DNA from: an archaeon
GTDB taxonomy: Archaea; Nanobdellota; Nanobdellia; Woesearchaeales; JBDRIN01
Assembly: GCA_043815805.1 (NCBI GenBank)
Contig: JBDRIN010000103.1
Span: forward strand, 1 to 24,000
Length of the DNA stretch: 24,000 nt
Direction: 5' to 3'
Shown here: one piece after another, positions 6,061 to 23,882 of the stretch
How the letters are laid out: each line of letters opens with the position of its first letter
Numbering within the stretch: position 1 is the stretch's first letter
Notes under the pieces: generated by a model
Databases searched by the model: none
The model's input: the letters and a program-made list of their open reading frames with translations, nothing else
What the model was told of the DNA's origin: nothing
Made by a program: the position numbers and the translations under genes

Positions 6061-6709
6061 TCCTAAAAACAACCTCTTTCTCAGGCAGACTCCTATGCTT
6101 CCTGAGGATAGCTTTCTTTTTAGAATCTTCAAGGTTCTGCAGTTCTATCAATGTCTTGCTGGCATACTTGATTATGTCACCGCCGATTGCTTTGACCTTG
6201 CCACGTTCTGGATCTTTAAGGTCTGCGTAGACCTGGTTTGTGATTAAGATAGGCACATGAAACTTAGTTGTGATATCTCCTAATTCTCCTAGTTGAATCC
6301 TGAGATTTCTATTGGCGTCAAATACGTTTCTGCTCTGGCTCAGCTCGACTCTGTAAAGAGTTGCAATTGTGTCAATGATCACTGCACCGATTTTCGGGCT
6401 CATCATCTTCTTTAGGTTCAACAACATGTCTTTCTGATCTTCCAAGCTGACAGGCCTCACGAAGATTATCCTATCCAAAGCTTTCTTATAATTAGGGCAT
6501 ATCTGCTTGAACCTTGCCAGTGAGAAAGACCCTTCTGTATCAACATAGATCACCACTTTGTCAGTCATAGAGTGAGCAACGAACATAAGAGCAAGATTGG
6601 TCTTCCCACTGCCTGCAGGGCCATAGATAGTCGTGATAGAATCCTTGTCATAGCCGCCTTCCAGCAGCCAATCCATAACGGCAGTACCGGTACTTAATTT
6701 AGTTTCCAT
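6032..6709 (-). CDS. radB: DNA repair and recombination protein RadB (archaeal RecA/RadA paralogue)
   Basis: 225 aa. It has Walker A (IYGPAGSGKTNLAL) and Walker B-like (AVIIDTIATLY) motifs. The short RadA-core-only architecture is typical of RadB. Confidence 0.85.
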   Translation of the reverse strand: METKLSTGTAVMDWLLEGGYDKDSITTIYGPAGSGKTNLALMFVAHSMTDKVVIYVDTEGSFSLARFKQICPNYKKALDRIIFVRPVSLEDQKDMLLNLKKMMSPKIGAVIIDTIATLYRVELSQSRNVFDANRNLRIQLGELGDITTKFHVPILITNQVYADLKDPERGKVKAIGGDIIKYASKTLIELQNLEDSKKKAILRKHRSLPEKEVVFRISEQGLEES

Positions 6710-6730
6710 GAAAAAAAGAAAAAGAGATTG

Positions 6731-6738
6731 GTTTATAT
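6731..6738 (-). promoter_or_regulatory. TATA-box candidate (ATATAAAC on the minus strand) for radB
   Basis: Centre is about 26 nt upstream of the ATG at 6709, and the box begins only about 11 nt beyond the stop of the upstream transporter gene. Confidence 0.35.
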
Positions 6739-6748
6739 GATTTCCGCC

Positions 6749-10088: not shown

Positions 10089-13000
10089 TTATTCCTCCGT
10101 AACCTCTTCCTCAGGTTCTGCTTCTTCTTTGACTATCCTGGCTGTAGAGACAATCATGTCGCCAGGCTTCATCTTCATCAGCCTTACGCCCTGGGTGTTC
10201 CTTCCGATGGTAGAAATACCTGATGAAGGAGTCCTTATGATTATGCCTTGTTTTGAGATGAACATCAGTTCATCATCATCTGTGACGTCTCTTACAGCGC
10301 ATACAGGGCCGTTCCTTGCAGAAGTCTGTATGTTGATGACTCCTTTTCCGCCACGATTGATCAACCTGTACTCAGATATCCTTGTCTTCTTTCCAAAGCC
10401 GTTCTCTGTGATAGTCAAGAGCTTCCTATCATCAGCTGCAGTGACCATGCCAACGACAGCGTCGCCTTTTTTCAGGCTGATGCCGCGCACGCCCATGGAT
10501 GTCCTGCCTATAGGCCTGGCGTTTTTCTCGTCAAACTTCACAGCCATGCCATGTTTTGAAGCGAGAATCAATTGTTTTGTGCCGTCAGTCAATTTGACAT
10601 CGACAACGTCATCATCATCGTTCAAAGTGATACCTCGTATTCCGCCTTGTCTTGGTCGTGAATAGGCCTTCAGGTTGGTCTTTTTCACCAAGCCTTTCTT
10701 TGTTGCCATGACAAGATAATGCTTGTCATCGAACTCTTTTATGGGGATGACCGCCTTGACGACCTCACCAGGTTCTAGCTGGACGAGGTTGATGACCGCT
10801 TTTCCCTGACCTTGCCTTGAGGCTTCTGGTATCCTGTATACTTTAAGCCAATAGACCTGGCCCTTGTCTGTGAACACAAGCAAGTAAGAGTGAGTATTGG
10901 CGATGAACAAGTGCTCGATGAAATCTTCTTCCCTTGCCTTTGCAGCAATGACTCCTTTTCCGCCTCTTCTCTGAAGCTTATAAGTCTCAGTGGGCAATCT
11001 CTTGATATAACCTGAGTGGGTTATCGTGACAACCTGGTCTTCTGCTTCAATCAAGTCTTCGATTTCAAGGTCATCCTCTGCCTCTTCAATCTTGGTCCTT
11101 CTTTCATCGCCATATTTGGATATTATCTCTTTCATCTCCTGCTTTATCAAATTGAGGATTTTGTTCTCATCTGCAAGTATCTCTTGGAGCTTCTTGATCA
11201 GCTCAAGCAGTTCTTTGTATTCCTGCATGAGCTTTTCTGTCTCTAAGCTTGTGAGCTTCTGTAGCTTCATGTCAAGTATGGCCTGGGCCTGTTTCTCGCT
11301 GAGCTTGAAGCTGCTCATCAAGCCGTCCCTTGCGACTGCAGCGTCTTTTGATTTCTTTATGAGCTTAATAGCGGCATCTATGTTTTCGAGAGCGATCTTC
11401 AACCCTTCTAAGATATGAGCCCTCTCTTCTGCTTTCTTAAGGTCGAACTCGGTCCTTTTCCTGACGACAAGTCTTCTGTGCTTCAAGAAGACTTCCAGCA
11501 TAGGTTTCAATCCCATGACTTTAGGCTGGTTATCTACTAGAGAAAGCATCAGGATTCCAAAATTATTCCTTAATCTTGTGTGTTTAAAAAGTTGGTTTTG
11601 CAGGACCTCTACGTTGGCGCCTTTCTTCAAGGTTATTGCGATGCGCATGCCATTCCTGTCAGACTCGTCCCTCAAGTCAGAGATGCCCTCTACTTTCTTG
11701 GTCTTAACAGCGTTTGCGATCTCTTCGATGAGCATGGATTTATTCACCATGTAAGGTATCTCTTTGACTATGAGCTTCTCTTTTTCACCTTTTTTCTCCA
11801 TTTCAATGACTGATTTTACAATCGCTCTTCCTCTTCCAGAAGTATAAGCTTGAACAATGCCCTGCCTTCCTGCGATAATTCCGCCTGTCGGAAAATCTGG
11901 TCCTTTGACAATAGATAGCAGTTCTATGATATCTATCTCTGGGTTTTCGATGAGTTTGATTACGCCTTGACAGACTTCTGTTATGTTATGCGGCGGGATG
12001 TTGGTCGCCATGCCTACAGCGATACCAGAGCTGCCGTTGATTAATAGATTCGGGACTTTGCTTGGCAATACCAGAGGTTCTTGCAGGCTTTCATCGAAGT
12101 TAGGAGCAAAAGGAACAGTCTCTTTGTCTATGTCTTGGAGAAGCTCTTCTGCCATGCGAGACATTTTTGCTTCCGTATTATGATTTATGAAACCGTTTGC
12201 TATAAAAGAATGGCATTTACTATTGACTTTGACAGAGAAAACATCTTCTTTTTTCTTCAATCTGCTGATTTTTGCGACTTGATTGAACAAAAACCTGTTT
12301 TTCAGGATGAAATCAACCAATTGTTTGTCTTTTGAATCGATAATCTTAATCAGTCTTGAGTAATTTTTTTCTAGATTGTTGTATCGGTTGATATTTGTTC
12401 TCTTTAAGAAAGATTTTTTGTATTTCTTCCTAAGATATTCAGTCAAGAAAGGGATGTAATCTGTCTTGCTCATCCTATAAGGATTCATCGATTTAATGTG
12501 TGCAAGTTTTCCCTTCTTTTTTTCAGAGAAGAAATCAATCTCTTCTTTGAAGTTTTTGATAGAATCATAGCCAGAAATTATGAGCTTGTAACATCCATTC
12601 CTTGTATCTCTGTAAGGCTTGGTGGTTGCGATTCCAAAACTTAGCAAGACAGTCTTTAATTGAGTGATTAGCTTTGAACTTTTAGAATTATAGGTCAGTT
12701 CAATGCCTTTTCCTCCATGTCTTTTGTCTGTTTTGTAACCGACAGAACCATCGCCTTCAAACAAGCCGTTAAGGAAGCTTTTTATGTTGCTTTTAGTCGA
12801 CAAAAGCACAGAAAAAGGAATCTCTTTTTTATCAGATTTTACTTCAGTCAGGCCGATATTTTTTAAGAAAAGCACGATCTTTTGCTCATAGATACTTAGT
12901 TCAGTGCAATTTCCTTTTAGTTTTCTCTCATAAAGCTGAACCCCTTTAAACTGAGACTTGATGACTGACTTGACTTTGTTATAGAATATTTTATCTTGAT

Positions 13001-13862
13001 TGTTGAATAAAATATGTTTTTGGTGGAAACTTCCTTCACTCACCAAAGCACCTAAAAGAAATGCCAAAGAATCATTTATCTTGGTCGGAAGCTTAACGTT
13101 GTTCTTAAAGCCTTTTTCAGGATGATATTTCCTTAAATCCAGAGAATTTTTAGAGAACAAAGCATGTTTTCTATTGAGGATTATGATATCGTCTTTGGTT
13201 ATGTTTTCAAGGAGTTTCCATTCAATCTGCGGAAAACCATTCTTGAAAGTCCAGCCTAGGACCGGATGATTATAAGATCCTTTGATTTTATATCCTAAAG
13301 CGGTTTCCAGCTCTATGATGTTATGCTTGCCTGAGTTGAAGAATTTACTAGCAAGGTTCTTTTTGCCGTTATATGATAATATTTTCATGTTAATACGGGC
13401 TTCACTTTTGTTGGAAATATTATGAATAGGCAAAATACCTTGTTCAGTCAAAATCAATGAATCTCCTGTTATGCAATATCTCATAGCGGCTGCGTTGTCG
13501 CCGTCAACACTTCCAAAGTTACCCTGGCCCATGACTAGAGGATATCTTAATGAAAATGTTTGTGCCATCCTTACCAAAGAATCGTAGACTGCGGTGTCTC
13601 CGTGAGGATGATACTTACCAAGGACTTCTCCCACGATCCTGGCGCACTTTTTGAAAGGAGTATTGTGCTTCATACCCATGTCGTTCATAGCATATAAGAT
13701 ACGCCTATGGACTGGTTTAAGGCCGTCTTTAGCATCAGGCAATGCTCTTCCAACTATGACACTCATAGCATACTTCAGATAAGAAGTCTTCATCTCATCC
13801 TCAATGACTTGAGGTATGACCCTGTCTGTTACCGGTTTGCTATTTTTTGATTCTTCAGCCAT
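10089..13862 (-). CDS. gyrA: DNA gyrase subunit A, interrupted by an intein (824-aa extein + 433-aa intein)
   Basis: Motifs present: [30 protein letters not shown], the active site AAMRY/TEAK split by the intein, and the GyrA box QRRGGKG in the C-terminal beta-pinwheel domain. The GyrA box indicates gyrase rather than Topo IV. Confidence 0.95.
12177..13475 (-). mobile_element. GyrA intein with a LAGLIDADG homing-endonuclease domain (433 aa)
   Basis: It begins [13 protein letters not shown] directly after the catalytic Tyr (codon 13476-13478) and ends [11 protein letters not shown] followed by +1 Thr (12174-12176). A block-B-like GSYNHPVL is present. Two LAGLIDADG motifs occur ([14 protein letters not shown] and [12 protein letters not shown]). 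The segment is visibly more AT-rich than the flanking extein DNA. Confidence 0.9.
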
Positions 13863-15897: not shown

Positions 15898-16761
15898 TTA
15901 TTTCTGCTTTTTCTTAGAATCAGTCTCTACTTCTTCGTTGCCTTCTGTAAGTTCTTCTATCTCTTTCTCGACCTCTTCGAGCATCTTCTGAGTATCCGAA
16001 TCATCCTGTGTTTCTTCTTCTGTCTCCTCAGGTTCCTCTTCTACTTCTTCAGAGGATTCTTCTTTATCTTCTCCTGTTTCAGCTCCATCTTCTTCCTCTT
16101 CAGGTTCTTCGACTACTTTTTCAAGTTTAGTCTTTCCTTTCTTGTCTTCAACTGGAGCCTCGGGCAGTGACTCAGTTGCCGCTTCCGCGGGTTCTGACTC
16201 TGCTTCTCCTTCTGCAGGCACATCGACCACTTCAAGATCACCGAGTTTCTTCTGGTCAGGCTTGGGCTCTGGCTGTTTTGCATCTTTCAGAGCCTCTTTT
16301 ATGTCTTTAGAGCCTTCAACATCAAAGTATTCGAAGAATTTCTCTGCAAGTTTGATCTCAAAGCTTCTTCCTTTCTTCTCTCTTGAGACAAAGCCGAGCT
16401 TCAACAGCTCTGCGATATGATCATAGGCACCGCTTCCCCTTGTCTTAATCACGGCGGACTGCAACATAGGCGCTTTGTAGGCAATCACAGCCAGAGTTTC
16501 CAGAGTAGCCCTTGAGAGTTCTGTGTCTGCAACAATCCTTTGGACAAGATGAAGGTATTTCTCACGTACAGTTATCTTCCAGGAAGATTCGTCCTGGATT
16601 ATCATCAAGGCGCCTTCCCTTTTTGTGTAGGCATGCTTAAGCTCTTTCAAGGCCTTATGGATCTCTTTAGGCGTCTCTCCTGTCAGCTGAGCCAGCATCT
16701 CTTCTGGCACAGGCTTTCCAGAGCTGAAAAGCAGCGCTTCTATCTTGTTTTTCAGGGTCAT
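15898..16761 (-). CDS. scpB: segregation and condensation protein B (ScpB) with a ~135-aa Glu/Asp-rich C-terminal extension
   Basis: The N-terminal ~150 aa (IEALLFSSGKPVPEEMLAQLTG..., SRATLETLAVIAYKAPMLQSAVIKTRGSGAYDHIAELLKLGFV) match the tandem winged helices of ScpB. The remainder is low-complexity acidic sequence. Confidence 0.85.
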   Translation of the reverse strand: MTLKNKIEALLFSSGKPVPEEMLAQLTGETPKEIHKALKELKHAYTKREGALMIIQDESSWKITVREKYLHLVQRIVADTELSRATLETLAVIAYKAPMLQSAVIKTRGSGAYDHIAELLKLGFVSREKKGRSFEIKLAEKFFEYFDVEGSKDIKEALKDAKQPEPKPDQKKLGDLEVVDVPAEGEAESEPAEAATESLPEAPVEDKKGKTKLEKVVEEPEEEEDGAETGEDKEESSEEVEEEPEETEEETQDDSDTQKMLEEVEKEIEELTEGNEEVETDSKKKQK

Positions 16762-17351
16762 TTTGGTTTTGAATAAAGGTTATCCGTCTTTATAAGTTTT
16801 TTCTCTTTGATCAGGGCTTCGATGAAAGGTTTCAGCTGCGTATGGCTGATGCCTATGGTCTTGCCTATGTCCTCTTCAGTCTTTGGCTTGTCAAGGCCTA
16901 TCATGATGCTGTTCAGGATAAGGGTGTTCATACCCCTTACCATGCCTTCGTGCTGGCTTTTCAATTTCAAGAAATTGGTGTTAGTCTCGTGGAGCTTTGC
17001 CAAGAGGTCGTTCAGCCAGTTCTGGAGTTCTCTCCCCTTGAAGACCAGCTCTGCAGGCTCTAAGATCTCTATAGAAGCAGGCATAAAGTTGATGCACAGC
17101 CAGGTGAGGGTCTCCAGGTTTTTTATCAGCATCTCTACCTCTGCGAAGGTGCTCCAGAGCTTGCCTTTTGTCTGTTCTATCTCTCCAAGCTCTTCTTTGA
17201 CGAACTTGATCCTATGGTCTTTCTTCAGGTTGTCCAGGTAACTCTTTATGGCTTTCTCTACATGAGCCTTGGGGCTGCCAAGCAGCTCAAAGGTCACTCT
17301 TGCAAGTATATAACCGTCTGCAATGCTTATCTTTATTTCTCTTTTATCCAT
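16758..17351 (-). CDS. hypothetical protein, 197 aa, C-terminal winged-helix-like domain; occupies the position where scpA would be expected
   Basis: ATG ORF overlapping the scpB start by 4 nt (ATGA), starting 1 nt after the upstream gene's stop (TAAGATG). The C-terminus EEDIGKTIGISHTQLKPFIEALIKEKKLIKTDN looks like an HTH. No canonical ScpA N-terminal motif is present. Confidence 0.6.
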   Translation of the reverse strand: MDKREIKISIADGYILARVTFELLGSPKAHVEKAIKSYLDNLKKDHRIKFVKEELGEIEQTKGKLWSTFAEVEMLIKNLETLTWLCINFMPASIEILEPAELVFKGRELQNWLNDLLAKLHETNTNFLKLKSQHEGMVRGMNTLILNSIMIGLDKPKTEEDIGKTIGISHTQLKPFIEALIKEKKLIKTDNLYSKPK

Positions 17352-17352
17352 C

Positions 17353-19443
17353 TTAACTCCTCTTTATCAGCACAAAAACAGCGATCGCCAACACACCCAT
17401 TATCCAATAAGAGAGATTGTTTTTTAATATTGTGTTTTTAGACTCATAAACAACCGTGTTTCCTGTTATGCTATCCTCTAAAAAACTAGTGCTATTTATA
17501 TCTTTTTCCATTTCTTCGAGGTTTTCCTGCAAAGAGACTTCTGCATCGCCTTGCACGCTGTTTTCTGCCTCTTCCACAGCAAGGTCTTCTGTCAGCTCAT
17601 AATCTGTCTTCTGGCTGTTCTTGTTTATCTTTACTTTTAATTTATAGTCGCCAGGCTCACCATTGAATGAGTTTTCCAAAGTTATGTTCCTGGTGCCTAA
17701 CTGGTCCAGATCGAACTCTATTAGGTTGGCTGTTCTATTTCCCGAATAGCACTTGTTCCCCTTGTAGATATAGCTCCATACCTGATAATGGCTGGCCTCA
17801 TCCTCGATATTGTGGATCCGGATGGTTGTTTTCAGAGCTTCTCCCTGTTTTATCTTCTCGTCAAAAGCGATGATCCCGTATTGTTTAATCTTTCCGGGGG
17901 TTGCTGCGGCAGAATCATCGCAGGTAGAGACTGTTGTTTCCTTGCACAGAGTGCTAAGAACACCTTCAACATAAACTTCATCAGACACTTCCAGGCCAAG
18001 GCCTTCTATCTTCAAAAGATATTTTCCGTCCTTGAACTTCATGTCGCAGTTCGGCTTTATCACAATAGGTATGGTGGATTCGTAGTTTGTGAACTTCTTG
18101 TTGGCGTTGAAGCTTGAGACATAGGATATCTTGGAATTGTTCTTCTCCAGCCAAGCTTCGACAGAGCTCTTGCCTGTGTCGCCTTTGTATATGTCTAGCT
18201 TGACACGCAGGATCTCTCCGAACTTCACGACATTGTCTGATCCGGTGTAGATGTCCAAGACATGGATGCTTGAATTAGGATCTTTTCTGCTCTTTACGAC
18301 TGCAACAACAGAATTCTCCGTTTGCTTGTTGGAATTGTTGCATGCGATGAAAGAGAGCCTGTTCTTGATGACAAAGACAGCATCAGATTCGCTTATGTCT
18401 GGGGTGTAAGATTTTGAAGCTGTATTGGACGTATTGTATCTCTCTTTGATTATATTTCCGAAGAGATCTTCGATCCAATACTCTATGAAAAAAGGAAAGC
18501 TCTCATTGCTGATACCATTGTATATATTGATCTTCTCAGAATTATTATAGATAAATTTGTCTGTGGAAAGGTCCAGGGAGACATTGCAGGGGATAAAGTT
18601 CGAGTCGATGACGATGAAGCCTTTGCAGTCATGATTATTGCTGAGGTTGGTGTCATTGACAGAAGCGTTGATTATCTTTCCGCAGAGAGTGTAATTGCCA
18701 GGGATGTTGGCAAAGAAAGAGCCAGTGTTTGAGGTTGAATAAGAGTTGATGGTCTTGTTGAAGATATCTTCCTTGACAATGCTTCTGTTGCTTGTTATAT
18801 TATAATAGATAAATACAGTCACATTATCATCAATACCTAATTCATCATCAAGATTTTCTATCTTGAACAGCTTGGTGTAAGTCAAGCCTTTGAAAAGGAC
18901 ATCGTCGAGGGAAACAGAAAGTTTGATGTCCTTTCCTTGGCTTGTGTTTGAGGAGTTGGAGCTATGAGAGTCGACTATGATATGATTCTCTATTCCAGGA
19001 GTTCCGCCGATCACTAAAGACTCTACCCAATTATCATTCCAGAATTCCAGAGAAAAACCATTGCCGTTTGCTAACGAACCGTTGTAACTTACGTTGTCAA
19101 CAACGATTCCATTATAATATAATAGGACAGAATCTCCGGCGTTGTTAAGGTTGTCTCCAATGGTTGTTCCGACAGAATAGACAGAGCAGTTGATTCCAGA
19201 AAGATTGAATCCTTCTTCAACGATAAGAGAATAATCTGAATCCATAAATTGCAATAGAACTAAAGAGTCATTGCTCGCAGAGTCAGCTATTATATAATAA
19301 GAAAGATTGTTTGTTCCGTAGATTTCGACAAATTCTAGGTTATTGTCTATTCCTAAAGGATTGTACATGATCTCGTTGATGTGGACAGCGCTGACAAAGT
19401 CAATGTACACAAAGAAAAGCAAAAAAAGCATGATTTTTTTCAT
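17353..19443 (-). CDS. membrane-anchored surface protein with an N-terminal lamin-tail domain (LTD); probable glycoprotein
   Basis: 696 aa. It has a signal peptide (MKKIMLFLLFFVYIDFVSAV), an LTD signature (HINEIMYNPLGIDNNLEFVEIYG), about 27 N-x-S/T sequons by my count, and a C-terminal TM anchor (YWIMGVLAIAVFVLIKRS). Confidence 0.8.
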   Translation of the reverse strand: MKKIMLFLLFFVYIDFVSAVHINEIMYNPLGIDNNLEFVEIYGTNNLSYYIIADSASNDSLVLLQFMDSDYSLIVEEGFNLSGINCSVYSVGTTIGDNLNNAGDSVLLYYNGIVVDNVSYNGSLANGNGFSLEFWNDNWVESLVIGGTPGIENHIIVDSHSSNSSNTSQGKDIKLSVSLDDVLFKGLTYTKLFKIENLDDELGIDDNVTVFIYYNITSNRSIVKEDIFNKTINSYSTSNTGSFFANIPGNYTLCGKIINASVNDTNLSNNHDCKGFIVIDSNFIPCNVSLDLSTDKFIYNNSEKINIYNGISNESFPFFIEYWIEDLFGNIIKERYNTSNTASKSYTPDISESDAVFVIKNRLSFIACNNSNKQTENSVVAVVKSRKDPNSSIHVLDIYTGSDNVVKFGEILRVKLDIYKGDTGKSSVEAWLEKNNSKISYVSSFNANKKFTNYESTIPIVIKPNCDMKFKDGKYLLKIEGLGLEVSDEVYVEGVLSTLCKETTVSTCDDSAAATPGKIKQYGIIAFDEKIKQGEALKTTIRIHNIEDEASHYQVWSYIYKGNKCYSGNRTANLIEFDLDQLGTRNITLENSFNGEPGDYKLKVKINKNSQKTDYELTEDLAVEEAENSVQGDAEVSLQENLEEMEKDINSTSFLEDSITGNTVVYESKNTILKNNLSYWIMGVLAIAVFVLIKRS

Positions 19444-20278: not shown

Positions 20279-20857
20279 ATGGACATAATAAAAGAAGCAA
20301 GAAAGCTTGTCACAGTAGAGATAGAGAAATACGGCTTTCCAACAAAGCTTCATTCTGAGTTCTCTGAAAAGAAAGCTTTAGACTTAGCAGATAAGCTCAG
20401 CGCAGACAAGACCATAGTCAACGTCGGCATACTCCTCATAGATGTGAAATTAGGAGAGGCCATCACATCAGACAAAATAAAAGACCATCTTAAAGAGCAT
20501 GTTCATATGAGTGCGAAAGCTGTCAAGCAATTCTTAAAAAAATTTGATCTGGACAAAGAAAGCAAAGACAAGATCATCAACTGTGTCGAAGCGCATCATG
20601 GCGGAGTGCCTTTCACCTGCAAAGAAGCAGAGATCTGCGCTAATGCAGATTCTTATTTTTTCCTTCATCCTGTAGGGTTCACGAACGCTTTGTATAATTC
20701 AGGTGCAAGAAATTTGGGGTATGAAAAAACATTAAATTGGTTGCACAGAAAACTCGAACAGAAATGGGAGATGGTCTCCCTTTCAGAAGTCCAGCAGGAA
20801 CTGGAGCCTTACTATAGGCAATTCAGAGAAATAATCAAGAAAGCCAAAGAATCTTAA
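20279..20857 (+). CDS. HD-superfamily-like protein (degenerate HD dyad)
   Basis: 192 aa. The helical layout and spacing resemble small HD hydrolases (LHSEF..., VGILLIDVKLGE, CVEAHHGG), but the HD position reads ID. Assignment is tentative. Confidence 0.45.
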   Translation: MDIIKEARKLVTVEIEKYGFPTKLHSEFSEKKALDLADKLSADKTIVNVGILLIDVKLGEAITSDKIKDHLKEHVHMSAKAVKQFLKKFDLDKESKDKIINCVEAHHGGVPFTCKEAEICANADSYFFLHPVGFTNALYNSGARNLGYEKTLNWLHRKLEQKWEMVSLSEVQQELEPYYRQFREIIKKAKES

Positions 20858-21855
20858 GTCTTTATCTCCCAACATCCAGGTATCTTCTTGCCGCAGGGAC
20901 AACATCCATCTTCTAATTTATCATGTTCCAGACAATAGCTCCGTTCAATCAGGTGCTCTCCGCATTCTGGGCAGATAGTCTCTCCTTTCTCCAAGACATT
21001 GCCAAGATAGACATAGTTAAGATGCTTCTTGGCCACTTCTGCTATCTTATGCAGACTCTCTACTGAAGTTGGAGCCCTGTCAAGCATCTTATGGCAGGGA
21101 TGAAACCTTGAGAAATGGATAGGGACATCTTTACCAAGCTCTTTCGCTATCCACTTGCACATCTCTCCTATCTCTTTCAAGTCATCGTTCAGTCCGGGTA
21201 TTATCAGGTTGGTTATCTCCAGCCAGACCTTGTTCTTCTTCAATATCTTCAAGCTCTCCTTCACAGGCTCTAACTCGCCGAAGCAATATTTTTTGTAGAA
21301 CTCTGGATTGAAACTTTTCAGGTCTATGTTCGCACCATCGATGTACTTACACCATTCCTTGAGCGGTTTGGGATTGATGTAACCGTTGCAGACAATGACA
21401 TTCTTCAGGCCCTTTTTCCTGGCAATCTTGGCTGTGTCCAAGACATATTCAAAAAAAACAATAGGATCATTATACGTGTAAGCGATAATCTTGCAGTCCT
21501 TGTTCATGGCCAAGGTGACTGCCTCTTTAGGGTTCAGATCCATGCCAGGAACTGAACCTGCATTGGCCTGTGAAGTGCTCCAGTTCTGACAGAAAGCACA
21601 ATGTAAGTTGCAGCCGGTAGTGCCTATGGAAAACGCATGTTCGCCTGGCAGGAAATGATACATAGGCTTCTTTTCGATAGGATCAACATTCACGCTGCAA
21701 AGCTTGCCATAGACAAGGCTATAGAGTTCTCCCTTCTCATTCTTCCTCGCCTTGCAGTCGCCGATCTCTCCTGGTTTGATGCTGCAGAAACGAGGACATA
21801 ATTGGCATTGGACAAGATTATCTTTGAGCTTTTTGTAATGGAGAGCTTCATTCAT
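20854..21855 (-). CDS. amrS: AmmeMemoRadiSam system radical SAM enzyme (AmrS; PFL-activase-like)
   Basis: 333 aa. It has the N-terminal Cys cluster (CQLCPRFC...GDC), the radical SAM CX3CX2C (GCNLHCAFCQNW), and a C-terminal Cys ribbon (CPECGEHL...CCPCGKK). Confidence 0.9.
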   Translation of the reverse strand: MNEALHYKKLKDNLVQCQLCPRFCSIKPGEIGDCKARKNEKGELYSLVYGKLCSVNVDPIEKKPMYHFLPGEHAFSIGTTGCNLHCAFCQNWSTSQANAGSVPGMDLNPKEAVTLAMNKDCKIIAYTYNDPIVFFEYVLDTAKIARKKGLKNVIVCNGYINPKPLKEWCKYIDGANIDLKSFNPEFYKKYCFGELEPVKESLKILKKNKVWLEITNLIIPGLNDDLKEIGEMCKWIAKELGKDVPIHFSRFHPCHKMLDRAPTSVESLHKIAEVAKKHLNYVYLGNVLEKGETICPECGEHLIERSYCLEHDKLEDGCCPCGKKIPGCWEIKT

Positions 21856-21979: not shown

Positions 21980-22753
21980 ATGGGATTATTCTCAAAAAAG
22001 AAGAAGAGAGAGGAAAATATAGACGAAGAAGTAGAAGAATTTGAAGACGATTTCTCTCCGAGCATGCCAGTCCCGCCTCCAGCTCCAGACTTGATACGGG
22101 AACGGCTTGATGAGCATCCAGAAGACCTGTTTTCTCCTGCACCAGAGCCAGAGCTTGCAAGATCATTCAGGGAAGAGGAACCCATAAAAGAGCTGCAGCC
22201 AGGAGAAGTCGACAAGCTGTTAGAGGAGAAACCATTGCCTCCTGATTTTGAGGAAGAAGATATCCGAAGAGCCATAGAAGAAGTGAAGACAGATATGACT
22301 CCAGAGCCGATAAGAGTGTTCTTGAAGCCAGAAACAGTCACCATGGACGACATAGAGAAAGAGTTTGCTTTGCCTGACATAGAGACGCCTGTGCCAGAGG
22401 ATTTTGGCATACCCTCGCCAATACCAAGGAATAATTTTAAGCTCCCTGACGTAGATGACGATCTCCCGGACTTTGAGTCGCCGTTCACGCCTCCGAGAGC
22501 AAAGAAGACATTTTCAGTTCCTACTCATAAAAAATTAGAAGGAGAGATTTTCATCAGATTTGATGATTATCAAAAGGTAAGTCCAAAGGTGAAAGAGCTC
22601 CAATCAGTACTCAACAATACGATAAGGTCTTTGAATGCAGAAGTCAATTTAGAAAGTTCGCAATTGAGCACTTTAGGAGCTTTCAACGGAACATTAGACC
22701 ACATCCAAGAGAAATTGATGGAAGTGGATGGTCTGATGTTCAAGGAAGAATAG
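21980..22753 (+). CDS. hypothetical protein P1, 257 aa: MGLFSKKKK head, ~185-aa acidic/Pro-rich disordered region, C-terminal ~65-aa helical module
   Basis: The ATG at 21980 is preceded by AGAGGGTGA; the track start at 21974 is a GTG. The C-terminal module IFIRFDDYQKV...LMEVDGLMF is paralogous to the next gene. Confidence 0.6.
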   Translation: MGLFSKKKKREENIDEEVEEFEDDFSPSMPVPPPAPDLIRERLDEHPEDLFSPAPEPELARSFREEEPIKELQPGEVDKLLEEKPLPPDFEEEDIRRAIEEVKTDMTPEPIRVFLKPETVTMDDIEKEFALPDIETPVPEDFGIPSPIPRNNFKLPDVDDDLPDFESPFTPPRAKKTFSVPTHKKLEGEIFIRFDDYQKVSPKVKELQSVLNNTIRSLNAEVNLESSQLSTLGAFNGTLDHIQEKLMEVDGLMFKEE

Positions 22754-22757
22754 TAGA

Positions 22758-22787
22758 GGCACTGAAAAATCCGAGATTTTTGGTGCC
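22758..22787 (+). other. intercistronic stem-loop (about 13 bp, one bulge) between P1 and P2
   Basis: GGCACTgAAAAATC CGA GATTTTTGGTGCC. I paired it by hand: 7 bp, a bulged G, then 6 bp including one G-U pair. Confidence 0.5.
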
Positions 22788-22814
22788 GCCTCGAATATCT
22801 CGGAGGTGAATCCA

Positions 22815-23042
22815 ATGAACCCATCAATCCCTGTTTTCGTCAAAATCGAAGAATACAAAGAGATCCTGGACATAATAGATGTCATACGGAGCAAGATAGA
22901 CACTGCAAAGAACACGCTGTCTAAGATCTCTGAGTTGAAGGATCAGGAAGACCAGAAGATAGAAGAATGGTCAAAGAACCTGGATGAAGTGGAAAGGAAG
23001 ATAGACTTCGTAGACAAGACATTATTTGAACCAAGAACTTAA
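22815..23042 (+). CDS. hypothetical protein P2, 75 aa, coiled-coil module
   Basis: The ATG at 22815 has GGAGGTGA ending 5 nt upstream (22802-22809); the track start at 22806 is a GTG. VFVKIEEYKEIL...IDFVDKTLF aligns without gaps over 65 residues with the C-terminus of P1. Confidence 0.6.
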   Translation: MNPSIPVFVKIEEYKEILDIIDVIRSKIDTAKNTLSKISELKDQEDQKIEEWSKNLDEVERKIDFVDKTLFEPRT

Positions 23043-23043
23043 A

Positions 23044-23448
23044 ATGGCACAAGATGCGTATTTTGTACATATAAGAAGCCCTGTTGATTTCCGCAGGACC
23101 TTGCTAGAGAGCTCCCGAGAAATCATACACCTGATGCAAGACTATCAGACGCTTCTTGAGTTAAGGAAGCAGAGGCTTGATATGGAAAGGTGCTTTAAAG
23201 AAGAAACAAGAGAGATCATGCTTCTCGTCAATAAGTTGGAGAAAGCACTGCCAAAGCATTCCTTGAACAAATTGAAGGAAGTCCTGCCAGGAGTCATTGA
23301 AGAAGAGAAGAAAAGGCAGCCTGCAAAAGCAAAAAAAGGCAAGAAGAAACCTGCTAAAAAAGAAGTTCTCAAGACTAAACAGGTCTCTGACATCAAGAAG
23401 CTGGAGAAAGCGCTTGAGAGCATTGATTCGAAGCTGCATAGTTTGTGA
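23044..23448 (+). CDS. hypothetical protein P3, 134 aa, helical module plus Lys-rich region
   Basis: The ATG at 23044 is 1 nt after the P2 stop (TAAAATG); the track start at 23026 is a TTG. YFVHIRSPVDFRRTLL...NKLEKALP has the same 65-residue span and the same beta-start pattern. It is followed by KKRQPAKAKKGKKKPAKK. Confidence 0.6.
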   Translation: MAQDAYFVHIRSPVDFRRTLLESSREIIHLMQDYQTLLELRKQRLDMERCFKEETREIMLLVNKLEKALPKHSLNKLKEVLPGVIEEEKKRQPAKAKKGKKKPAKKEVLKTKQVSDIKKLEKALESIDSKLHSL

Positions 23449-23462
23449 ATTCTAAAGAAACC

Positions 23463-23470
23463 TTTATATC
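23463..23470 (+). promoter_or_regulatory. TATA-box candidate (TTTATATC) for the 23493 gene
   Basis: Centre is about 26 nt upstream of the ATG at 23493. This supports trimming the track ORF 23445..23882. Confidence 0.4.
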
Positions 23471-23492
23471 TACACCGCTATTTCTATCTCTT

Positions 23493-23882
23493 ATGGAACC
23501 TGTTTTTCAATGTGGGGGATATTACGTGCCTGAAAGAGATGGTCCTTTACAAGAATACTTAAAAACCCACAACGGACGTTCTGCTTTTCCTCTTTTTAAG
23601 GGCTATGAGATGTATGAAACGCTCAGAGATGAAGGTTATCTTGCACAGCACTATAGCATTGTTCGTCTGATGTGGAACATCGGCAGGGATGATGAACATT
23701 TTCTTGTTGTTGATGATTTTCAATTAGAAGGCATGGTTGCAGCTGCGCATTCTGGTAGAGACGGAGTTCATGATCCAAAAGATATCTTAACAGATGACGG
23801 ACCGCCCTGGGAAGCATTTCAGCTTAATCCAAAAAAATTATACGAAAAGCTTGAAAATGAGCAGGAACCGGAAATTGATTAA
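23493..23882 (+). CDS. hypothetical protein, 129 aa (MEPVFQCGGYYVPERDG...)
   Basis: ATG ORF with its own TATA box. I recognise no family. Confidence 0.55.
   Translation: MEPVFQCGGYYVPERDGPLQEYLKTHNGRSAFPLFKGYEMYETLRDEGYLAQHYSIVRLMWNIGRDDEHFLVVDDFQLEGMVAAAHSGRDGVHDPKDILTDDGPPWEAFQLNPKKLYEKLENEQEPEID

Follow-up and report, generated by a model that had tools for sequence, protein, structure and literature searches.

What is encoded by three small genes that follow one another on the forward strand of a woesearchaeal contig and match no described protein family? The genes in question occupy positions 21980-23448 of a 24,000-nucleotide (nt) stretch of archaeal DNA, henceforth called the window, which corresponds to positions 1 to 24,000 of contig JBDRIN010000103.1 (GenBank assembly GCA_043815805.1; Nanobdellota, Woesearchaeales). 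They encode proteins of 257 (P1, 21980-22753), 75 (P2, 22815-23042) and 134 amino acids (P3, 23044-23448), and both the list of open reading frames (ORFs) and direct reading of the DNA agree with a first-pass annotation, made from the letters alone, that had described the three genes as co-directional and tightly linked. The same annotation saw three paralogous helical modules in the gene products and suggested a hetero-oligomeric scaffold. Its observation is confirmed in part, and its interpretation is supported in part. We tentatively favour, with somewhat less than even confidence, a membrane-tethered adaptor built around a hetero-oligomeric coiled coil, specific to the Woesearchaeota/Nanoarchaeota lineage and with a probable role in cell division or chromosome partition. 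DPANN archaea make up a large and mostly uncultured share of archaeal diversity and their cell biology is barely known. The trio is a well-defined candidate, cheap to test, for a lineage-specific module that acts in division, in segregation or in the organisation of the envelope.

The three genes form a strictly conserved unit. In a scan that used one genome per GTDB species, 128 species contained a relative and 80 loci were kept. In all 81 loci P2 is followed by a P3-type ORF, and in 80 of them a P1-type ORF comes before it, the single exception (L076) being a P2 gene located 136 nt from the end of its contig. The genes thus occur together in the family, as the first-pass annotation had led us to expect. 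The gap between P1 and P2 has a median of 7 nt (between -10 and +20 nt in 71/80 loci) and that between P2 and P3 a median of 2 nt (same range in 74/79 loci); gaps as short as these imply co-translation. P2 is the most conserved member of the trio. Residues V9, K15, E45 and W52 are invariant in the alignment of its homologues, and its mean p-distance is 0.46 as compared with 0.61 for ScpB, which is encoded in the neighbourhood. The operon is under strong purifying selection, with P2 changing more slowly than ScpB. For the P1 protein of the window, a single close homologue was found (P0028, 51% identity). A word-indexed search grouped the P2 homologues into 26 clusters, while an exhaustive profile search returned 2964 cluster representatives with E<=1e-3, among them 758 with E<=1e-10; the best 150 representatives are nearly all 71-84 amino acids long.

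The closest relatives of the window proteins stem from Woesearchaeota and Nanoarchaeota (DPANN) assemblies. Most of the kept loci carry the labels Woesearchaeota, Nanoarchaeota, Nanoarchaeia or Nanobdellota, a few are labelled just 'archaeon', and about a third are titled 'uncultured Methanosarcinales'. Third-party annotation (TPA) assemblies with the latter title (L007, L010, L012, L013 and about 20 others) contain the trio together with the same flanks, and these are probably DPANN bins with a wrong taxonomic label. The same trio with the same flanks is present even in a divergent marine locus from Nanoarchaeota. A viral contig collection yielded no relatives of the trio proteins. As far as these data show, the trio is restricted to Nanobdellota-type DPANN archaea.

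The statement that the proteins belong to no known family held up in all comparisons. Pfam gave no match above threshold, neither for the window proteins nor for 25 P2, 30 P3 and 16 P1 family members, and the matches below threshold (MtrG, NPV_P10, Laminin_II, Cluap1) are generic coiled-coil noise. Scans of the window proteins and family members against NCBIfam, PHROGs and PADLOC were likewise negative, searching the PDB sequences with profiles of the P2 and the P3 family yielded nothing below E 0.04, and a literature search found no description of the trio family. Foldseek searches of the PDB with the AlphaFold2 models of P2 and P3 gave nothing useful, which is expected because these models are long single helices. 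Judged by these searches, the three proteins are new sequence families. In the source annotations, single P2 homologues (P0020, P0023) had been named 'CdvB (Snf7/Vps24/ESCRT-III)' and 'MtrG', and both labels are likely coiled-coil false positives. Should the trio prove to be merely a generic coiled-coil set, its value would lie in three new families for annotation and in the correction of these two labels.

How are the three proteins related to each other? For P1 and P2, the answer is clear. The 65-residue heptad module at the C-terminus of P1 (IFIRF...GLMF, 22547-22741) had been reported to align with P2 without gaps, and BLASTP reproduces this alignment over 65 residues with 17% identity (E 4e-4 in a single comparison). 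When the family profiles are compared by hhalign, the probability rises to 99.7% with an E value of 3.4e-25 over 69 ungapped columns. Furthermore, in most loci the P1 gene that precedes P2 is matched by the hidden Markov model (HMM) for P2 (E 1e-10 to 1e-19), and a profile of the P1 C-terminus that was made without the window sequences assigns 44.1 bits to the P1 and 76 bits to the P2 of the window. These profile comparisons identify the P1 C-terminus and P2 as true paralogues. As a side observation, a protein of 204 amino acids (P0088) consists of a P2 module fused to an N-terminus that resembles bacterial solute-binding proteins; it is probably a chimera caused by assembly or gene calling.

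The first-pass annotation had counted the N-terminal heptad segment of P3 (YFVHI...KALP, 65 residues, 23059-23253) as a third paralogue, and this was not borne out. BLASTP found no match of P3 to P2 or to the P1 C-terminus, hhalign probabilities against the two other modules were 12% and 2%, and the HMM scores were 2.8 and 8.5 bits. A gapless profile test anchored on the xFVxI start seemed positive, with offset 0 as the best of 43 offsets against P2 as well as against the P1 C-terminus. When the anchor columns were excluded and P3 was shuffled in heptad blocks, however, the scores exceeded the mean by only about one standard deviation (p 0.12 and 0.17), whereas the comparison of P2 with the P1 C-terminus, which served as a control in the same test, gave a z value of 5.7. 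Third paralogue status for P3 was dropped on this ground. What P3 has in common with the other two modules is the xFVxI start, the span of 65 residues up to a proline and the heptad phase only. Paralogy is thus shown for two modules, and P3, which is not demonstrably a third one, is a look-alike.

All three segments nevertheless have the same helical and heptad character. The AlphaFold2 model of P2, based on an alignment of 25 sequences, consists of a single continuous helix from residue 7 to 71 with a mean predicted local distance difference test (pLDDT) score of 86 and values around 95 in the middle of the helix. For P3, modelled from a shallow alignment (pLDDT 71), a helix from residue 13 to 68 is followed by two short helices, a disordered stretch rich in lysine (91-110) and a further, C-terminal helix (106-133). 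Neither model contains the long helical hairpin that had been envisaged for the modules; continuous helices take its place. Hydrophobicity averaged over the alignments has a sharply defined period of 3.45-3.50 residues in the P1 C-terminus, in P2 and in the N-terminal segment of P3. The power at 3.5 exceeds that at 3.6 residues by a factor of about 2.6-2.8 for P2 and the P1 C-terminus and of about 11 for the P3 segment. A period of 3.5 residues is the signature of a left-handed coiled coil rather than of an amphipathic helix lying on a surface, and here it extends over long predicted helices, as is generally the case for coiled coils. Heptad periodicity and tight gene coupling together fit a hetero-oligomeric coiled coil.

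If the helices form the core of a complex, P1 would be the member that brings it to the membrane. The protein starts with the hydrophobic-basic motif MGLFSKKKKR (21980-22009), in which the first-pass annotation had seen a resemblance to membrane-binding heads. A head of this predicted type is kept in 76 of 80 orthologues, with MGFLKFLKRxKK as the family consensus (consensus peptide MGFLKFLKREKK) and a median net charge of +3. A first, crude test of its hydrophobic moment was insignificant, while a better-defined test at the family level was significant: the best moment over nine residues has a family mean of 0.546 as compared with 0.478 for shuffled sequences, and none of 5000 resampled means reached this value. 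The consensus itself has a moment of 0.63. For comparison, the corresponding values are 0.62 for the membrane-targeting sequence of Escherichia coli MinD and 0.69 for the N-terminus of Bacillus subtilis SepF.

The head is followed by an acidic, proline-rich and presumably disordered linker (residues 11-185, 22010-22546; 18% E, 17% P, 11% D; net charge -30). Across the family, the linker comprises 37-329 residues with 19% P and 14% E. Close to its beginning lies a proline motif (SMPVPPPAPD, 22061-22090) that 73/80 orthologues have among their first 90 residues and that follows the family consensus [EG][LM][ED][LIV]PP[PAMV]P[PS], also summarised as [ED]-h-[ED]-h-PPxPP; in a scan for related motifs, its median distance from the start methionine was about 19 residues. 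Further short motifs follow in the linker of the window protein: PLPPDFEE (22232-22255), ALPDIE (22367-22384), KLPDVD (22439-22456) and DLPDFE (22460-22477). Motifs of the type hPxh[P/E/D] occur on average 2.55 times per P1 linker and 0.34 times in shuffled sequences, which corresponds to an approximately 7-fold enrichment. The LPD-type motifs, the MGLFSKKKK head and the tract KKRQPAKAKKGKKKPAKK of P3 were all found where the earlier reader had placed them.

An N-terminal amphipathic helix, a disordered linker and a binding domain also make up archaeal SepF (PMC8178401) and CdpC (bioRxiv 10.64898/2026.07.16.738847). The first of these elements has a counterpart in the N-terminal motif of 76/80 P1 orthologues, and the second in the P1 linker. 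P1 shares with SepF its small size, a cytoplasmic location and an arrangement in which a flexible linker joins an N-terminal helix of the membrane-binding type to an interaction module at the C-terminus; the analogy is confined to layout. This layout, together with the conservation of the motifs, speaks for a trio that anchors FtsZ or another cytoskeletal filament to the membrane, or bundles it, in the manner of SepF, ZipA or CdpC, with P1 as the membrane tether and the bundle of the P1 C-terminus, P2 and P3 binding the filament. The idea gains from the presence of an FtsZ-based system in about 93% of DPANN genomes (PMC8407392). However, Woesearchaeota have a SepF homologue, which has served as a query (bioRxiv 10.1101/2020.10.06.327809), and for this reason the trio was rejected as a replacement for SepF. 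P1 has no match to the profile of the SepF core (PF04472, DUF552). That core is an alpha/beta domain, whereas the module of P1 is a single heptad helix of 65 residues and the trio adds two dedicated subunits. CdpC (HVO_0399), the haloarchaeal membrane anchor of FtsZ1, requires zinc fingers in both of its terminal domains, while the P1 of the window is free of cysteine and 80 P1 sequences contain 18 cysteines in total. Moreover, CdpC is a lone protein and not part of a three-gene set, and the C-terminal domain of P1 is a coiled-coil helix. Finally, a regex scan of the flanks of 80 loci detected no FtsZ signature within about 6 kb. We consider a filament anchor of this kind unlikely.

The membrane-binding heads to which the first-pass annotation had likened the start of P1, as a resemblance only, were those of ESCRT-III-type proteins. 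In its full form, this idea makes the trio an ESCRT-III-like membrane remodeller with a CHMP-type head on P1, MIM2-like hPxhP motifs, a MIM1-like C-terminal helix in P3 and a recruited Vps4-type ATPase. MGLFSKKKK is similar to how CHMP3 and CHMP6 begin, the motifs ELPPVP and ELPEFP recall the MIM2 sequence of CHMP6, 'ELPEVP', and IxxRLxxL in the C-terminus of P3 recalls MIM1; all of these served as leads only. Helicity and a basic-hydrophobic N-terminus are common to both systems, and the 'CdvB' label of a P2 homologue points in the same direction. The idea failed on profile matches, on the helical core and on the position of the head. Neither the window proteins nor the 25 P2, 30 P3 and 16 P1 members matched the ESCRT-III/Snf7 (PF03357) or PspA/Vipp1 profiles at E<=1. 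Snf7-type proteins are chains of about 200 amino acids with an alpha1-alpha2 hairpin core followed by alpha3-alpha5, and the AlphaFold2 monomers of P2 and P3 lack such a hairpin. In P1, the N-terminal motif is 37-329 disordered residues away from the helix, such that order and spacing are wrong. In the approximately 6-kb flanks of 80 loci, a regex for the Walker A motif of AAA+ proteins, the class of the expected Vps4/CdvC partner with its MIT domain, returned nothing relevant apart from a single kinase-like P-loop ORF of 158 amino acids. The ESCRT machinery is reported to be absent from DPANN archaea (review, PMC10117752), and a literature search on ESCRT in Woesearchaeota found none. The ESCRT-III idea, of which the MIM1- and MIM2-like motifs are putative leads, was downgraded, as no test spoke in its favour, and a remodeller of this type is highly unlikely. 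The sole SNARE signal came from three of the 25 P2 members, which matched V-SNARE_C below threshold (best E 0.016); SNARE proteins combine a heptad motif of 60-70 residues with a C-terminal membrane anchor, whereas the trio has no transmembrane segment and a predicted peripheral anchor at the N-terminus.

P3 has appendages of its own. Downstream of its heptad segment, it has a lysine-rich tail (23308-23361) and a C-terminal amphipathic helix (23383-23445). Family-wide, the P3 linker contains 27% K and has a positive net charge in 51 of the 64 orthologues, and several orthologues have N-terminal extensions of the KK(S/T/A)KK type. Most plausibly, these basic features would serve to bind a polyanion, nucleic acid above all. 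In two orthologues, C2H2 zinc fingers are inserted into the lysine-rich linker (L014, around 6182-6742, CDRCDKEFKSRQSLTKHHKLH; L055, around 6220-6711, CVVCNDSFKTQALLAQHMKRH), which hints at nucleic-acid binding by this part of the protein.

A membrane-tethered adaptor could be assembled from these elements as follows. The short hydrophobic-basic helix at the N-terminus of P1 would bind to the cytoplasmic face of the membrane, while the flexible acidic linker would recruit partner proteins through its polyproline-type docking motifs. P2, the bare paralogue of the C-terminal heptad helix of P1, and P3, whose own heptad helix begins alike, is equal in span and keeps to the same phase, would bundle with it in register, and the three helices of equal length would thus form a hetero-oligomeric coiled coil. 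P3 would also provide a C-terminal amphipathic helix and a lysine-rich tail for the binding of a polyanion, most likely DNA. The resulting adaptor would link the membrane to the nucleoid and/or to the partners recruited by P1, most probably in cell division or chromosome partition. Our confidence in any specific partner of the complex is much lower than that in the general model. Similarly, we regard as doubtful the more far-reaching version, i.e., a DPANN-specific, membrane-anchored heterotrimeric coiled-coil tether that connects nucleoid and partners to the membrane during partition or division, independently of the known archaeal division families.

As a peripheral membrane tether with small coiled-coil partners, the proposed architecture is of a known general kind and does not overturn current knowledge. 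It adds a case, unrelated in sequence, to the combination of amphipathic helix, disordered linker and binding module in archaeal FtsZ anchors. Bacteria, too, have small heptad-repeat proteins whose assembly takes place at the membrane, namely the division and polarity scaffolds ZapB and DivIVA/GpsB and the membrane-DNA tethers Noc and RacA-DivIVA. In Noc, DNA binding is paired with an amphipathic helix at the N-terminus, a parallel to the proposed membrane anchor of P1 and the basic, putatively DNA-binding tail of P3. The trio differs from all of these systems in that sequence or profile similarity is lacking and in that the functions are split over three polypeptides.

Further indications come from the genes surrounding the trio. 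In 47-54 of 81 loci, the opposite strand upstream of the trio encodes a surface protein with a lamin-tail domain (LTD), a protein of about 200 amino acids resembling MJ0538, and ScpB. The gyrA gene is frequently located beyond this block, and on the other side of the trio genes for RNase J (in 44 loci) and for PCNA (in 29) are common. Synteny with gyrA and with the ScpB/MJ0538-like operon is maintained even in the divergent marine locus. Neighbours in the window are archaeal housekeeping genes, comprising an intein-containing gyrA as well as genes for ScpB, an ArsR-type regulator, a CYTH protein, a radical-SAM enzyme, an HD protein, a RadA/RadB-like ATPase, an eRF1-family protein and a cation-chloride cotransporter. 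Such a neighbourhood may fit a function in DNA maintenance or the cell cycle; inherited gene order is an equally possible explanation.

The recurrent LTD gene could also mean that the trio is a cytoplasmic scaffold or organiser for this surface glycoprotein or for the cell envelope. An LTD-family gene lies divergently upstream of the trio in 54/81 loci, and the copy in the window encodes a protein of 696 amino acids that has a signal peptide and numerous NxS/T sequons and is anchored by a transmembrane segment at its C-terminus; orthologues of this protein match the lamin-tail domain. The cytoplasmic tail of this protein is, however, only about 3 residues long, three other genes separate its gene from P1 in the window, and the overlapping operon to which it belongs includes the MJ0538-like and ScpB genes and excludes the trio. 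We regard an organiser of the surface protein as very unlikely.

Several observations weigh against the proposed adaptor. The residue-level similarity of P3 to P1 and P2 is insignificant under the heptad-preserving control, and the AlphaFold2 models of P2 and P3 are of monomers only. The MGLFSKKKK sequence of the window itself has a moment of merely 0.29 and is weakly amphipathic. The lysine-rich tail of P3 could bind acidic lipids or RNA instead of DNA. The gene neighbourhoods, whose survey the first-pass annotation had recommended, contain no FtsZ signature and no AAA+ division gene within about 6 kb in the 80 loci scanned, and the linkage to ScpB possibly reflects inherited order and not functional coupling, because RNase J and PCNA are found in the same block. 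In favour of the adaptor, the correlation between the distance matrices of its three segments (P1 C-terminus, P2, N-terminal segment of P3) persists once the distances of ScpB and the MJ0538-like protein have been regressed out (partial r 0.33-0.54), as compared with 0.60 for the ScpB/MJ0538-like pair. This gives weak support for co-evolving partners, and the mirror-tree method is a weak one.

Some of these observations would also be at home in a soluble cytoplasmic coiled-coil complex without a membrane role, such as a nucleic-acid-associated or chaperone-like adaptor, in which the N-terminus of P1 serves another purpose. The low moment of the window sequence, the insignificant outcome of the crude test, the basic tail of P3 with zinc-finger inserts in two orthologues and a neighbourhood rich in genes of DNA and RNA metabolism all agree with such a complex. 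It is, however, at odds with the retention of the N-terminal motif in nearly all orthologues and with its amphipathicity, which at the family level exceeds that of shuffled sequences. The motif is, moreover, always found at the extreme N-terminus and is followed by a flexible linker, the typical layout of a tether. In our view, a soluble complex is improbable, and the membrane-tethered adaptor remains our preferred, if tentative, reading.

The block upstream of the trio has features of its own. In the window, the genes for the LTD-type protein, the MJ0538-like protein and ScpB (15898-19443, minus strand) have overlapping start and stop codons, which suggests a single operon, and the presence of a secreted surface protein within a ScpB operon is odd. 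The MJ0538-like protein (197 amino acids) has a probable C-terminal winged helix. It gave no match to the ScpA profile, although it is placed where the kleisin ScpA would be expected, and it may be a divergent archaeal kleisin; a literature search on MJ0538 found no description. The gyrA gene of the window (10089-13862, minus strand, 1257 amino acids) contains an intein with a LAGLIDADG homing endonuclease at about residues 137-562 (Intein_splicing, LAGLIDADG_3). The gyrA orthologue calls are much shorter, with 813 (L003) and 855 amino acids (L085), and both end at the edge of their locus.

Within the trio of the window, the boundary between P1 and P2 deviates from the rest of the family. The first-pass annotation had described a spacer of 61 nt with a hairpin and a Shine-Dalgarno (SD) sequence as well as a TAAAATG junction between P2 and P3. 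Spacer, putative SD sequence of P2 (GGAGGTGA, 22802-22809) and junction can all be read in the DNA; the sequence upstream of the P1 start codon is GAGGGTGA. The hairpin is present in the predicted fold at 22758-22787 and its energy is ordinary (z -1.36; 15 of 200 shuffled sequences fold equally well). Since the median gap between P1 and P2 is 7 nt elsewhere, the 61-nt spacer is an outlier, and the spacer with its hairpin is considered a local peculiarity. The hairpin probably does not belong to the trio system. A regulatory role for it was rejected on account of its ordinary energy and lack of conservation in the family.

On the downstream side, an ORF of 145 amino acids (23445-23882, plus strand) overlaps the stop codon of P3. 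It has a GTG start, and an ATG around 23493 is the more likely initiation site. It gave no family match and has no counterpart 3' of the trio in other loci, and it is probably an unrelated lineage-specific gene. On the upstream side, a radical-SAM gene (20854-21855, minus strand, 333 amino acids; Radical_SAM, Fer4_12) is located between the LTD/ScpB block and the trio. This family is found in the same position in 18/81 loci, which marks the divergent intergenic region as a recurrent insertion point.

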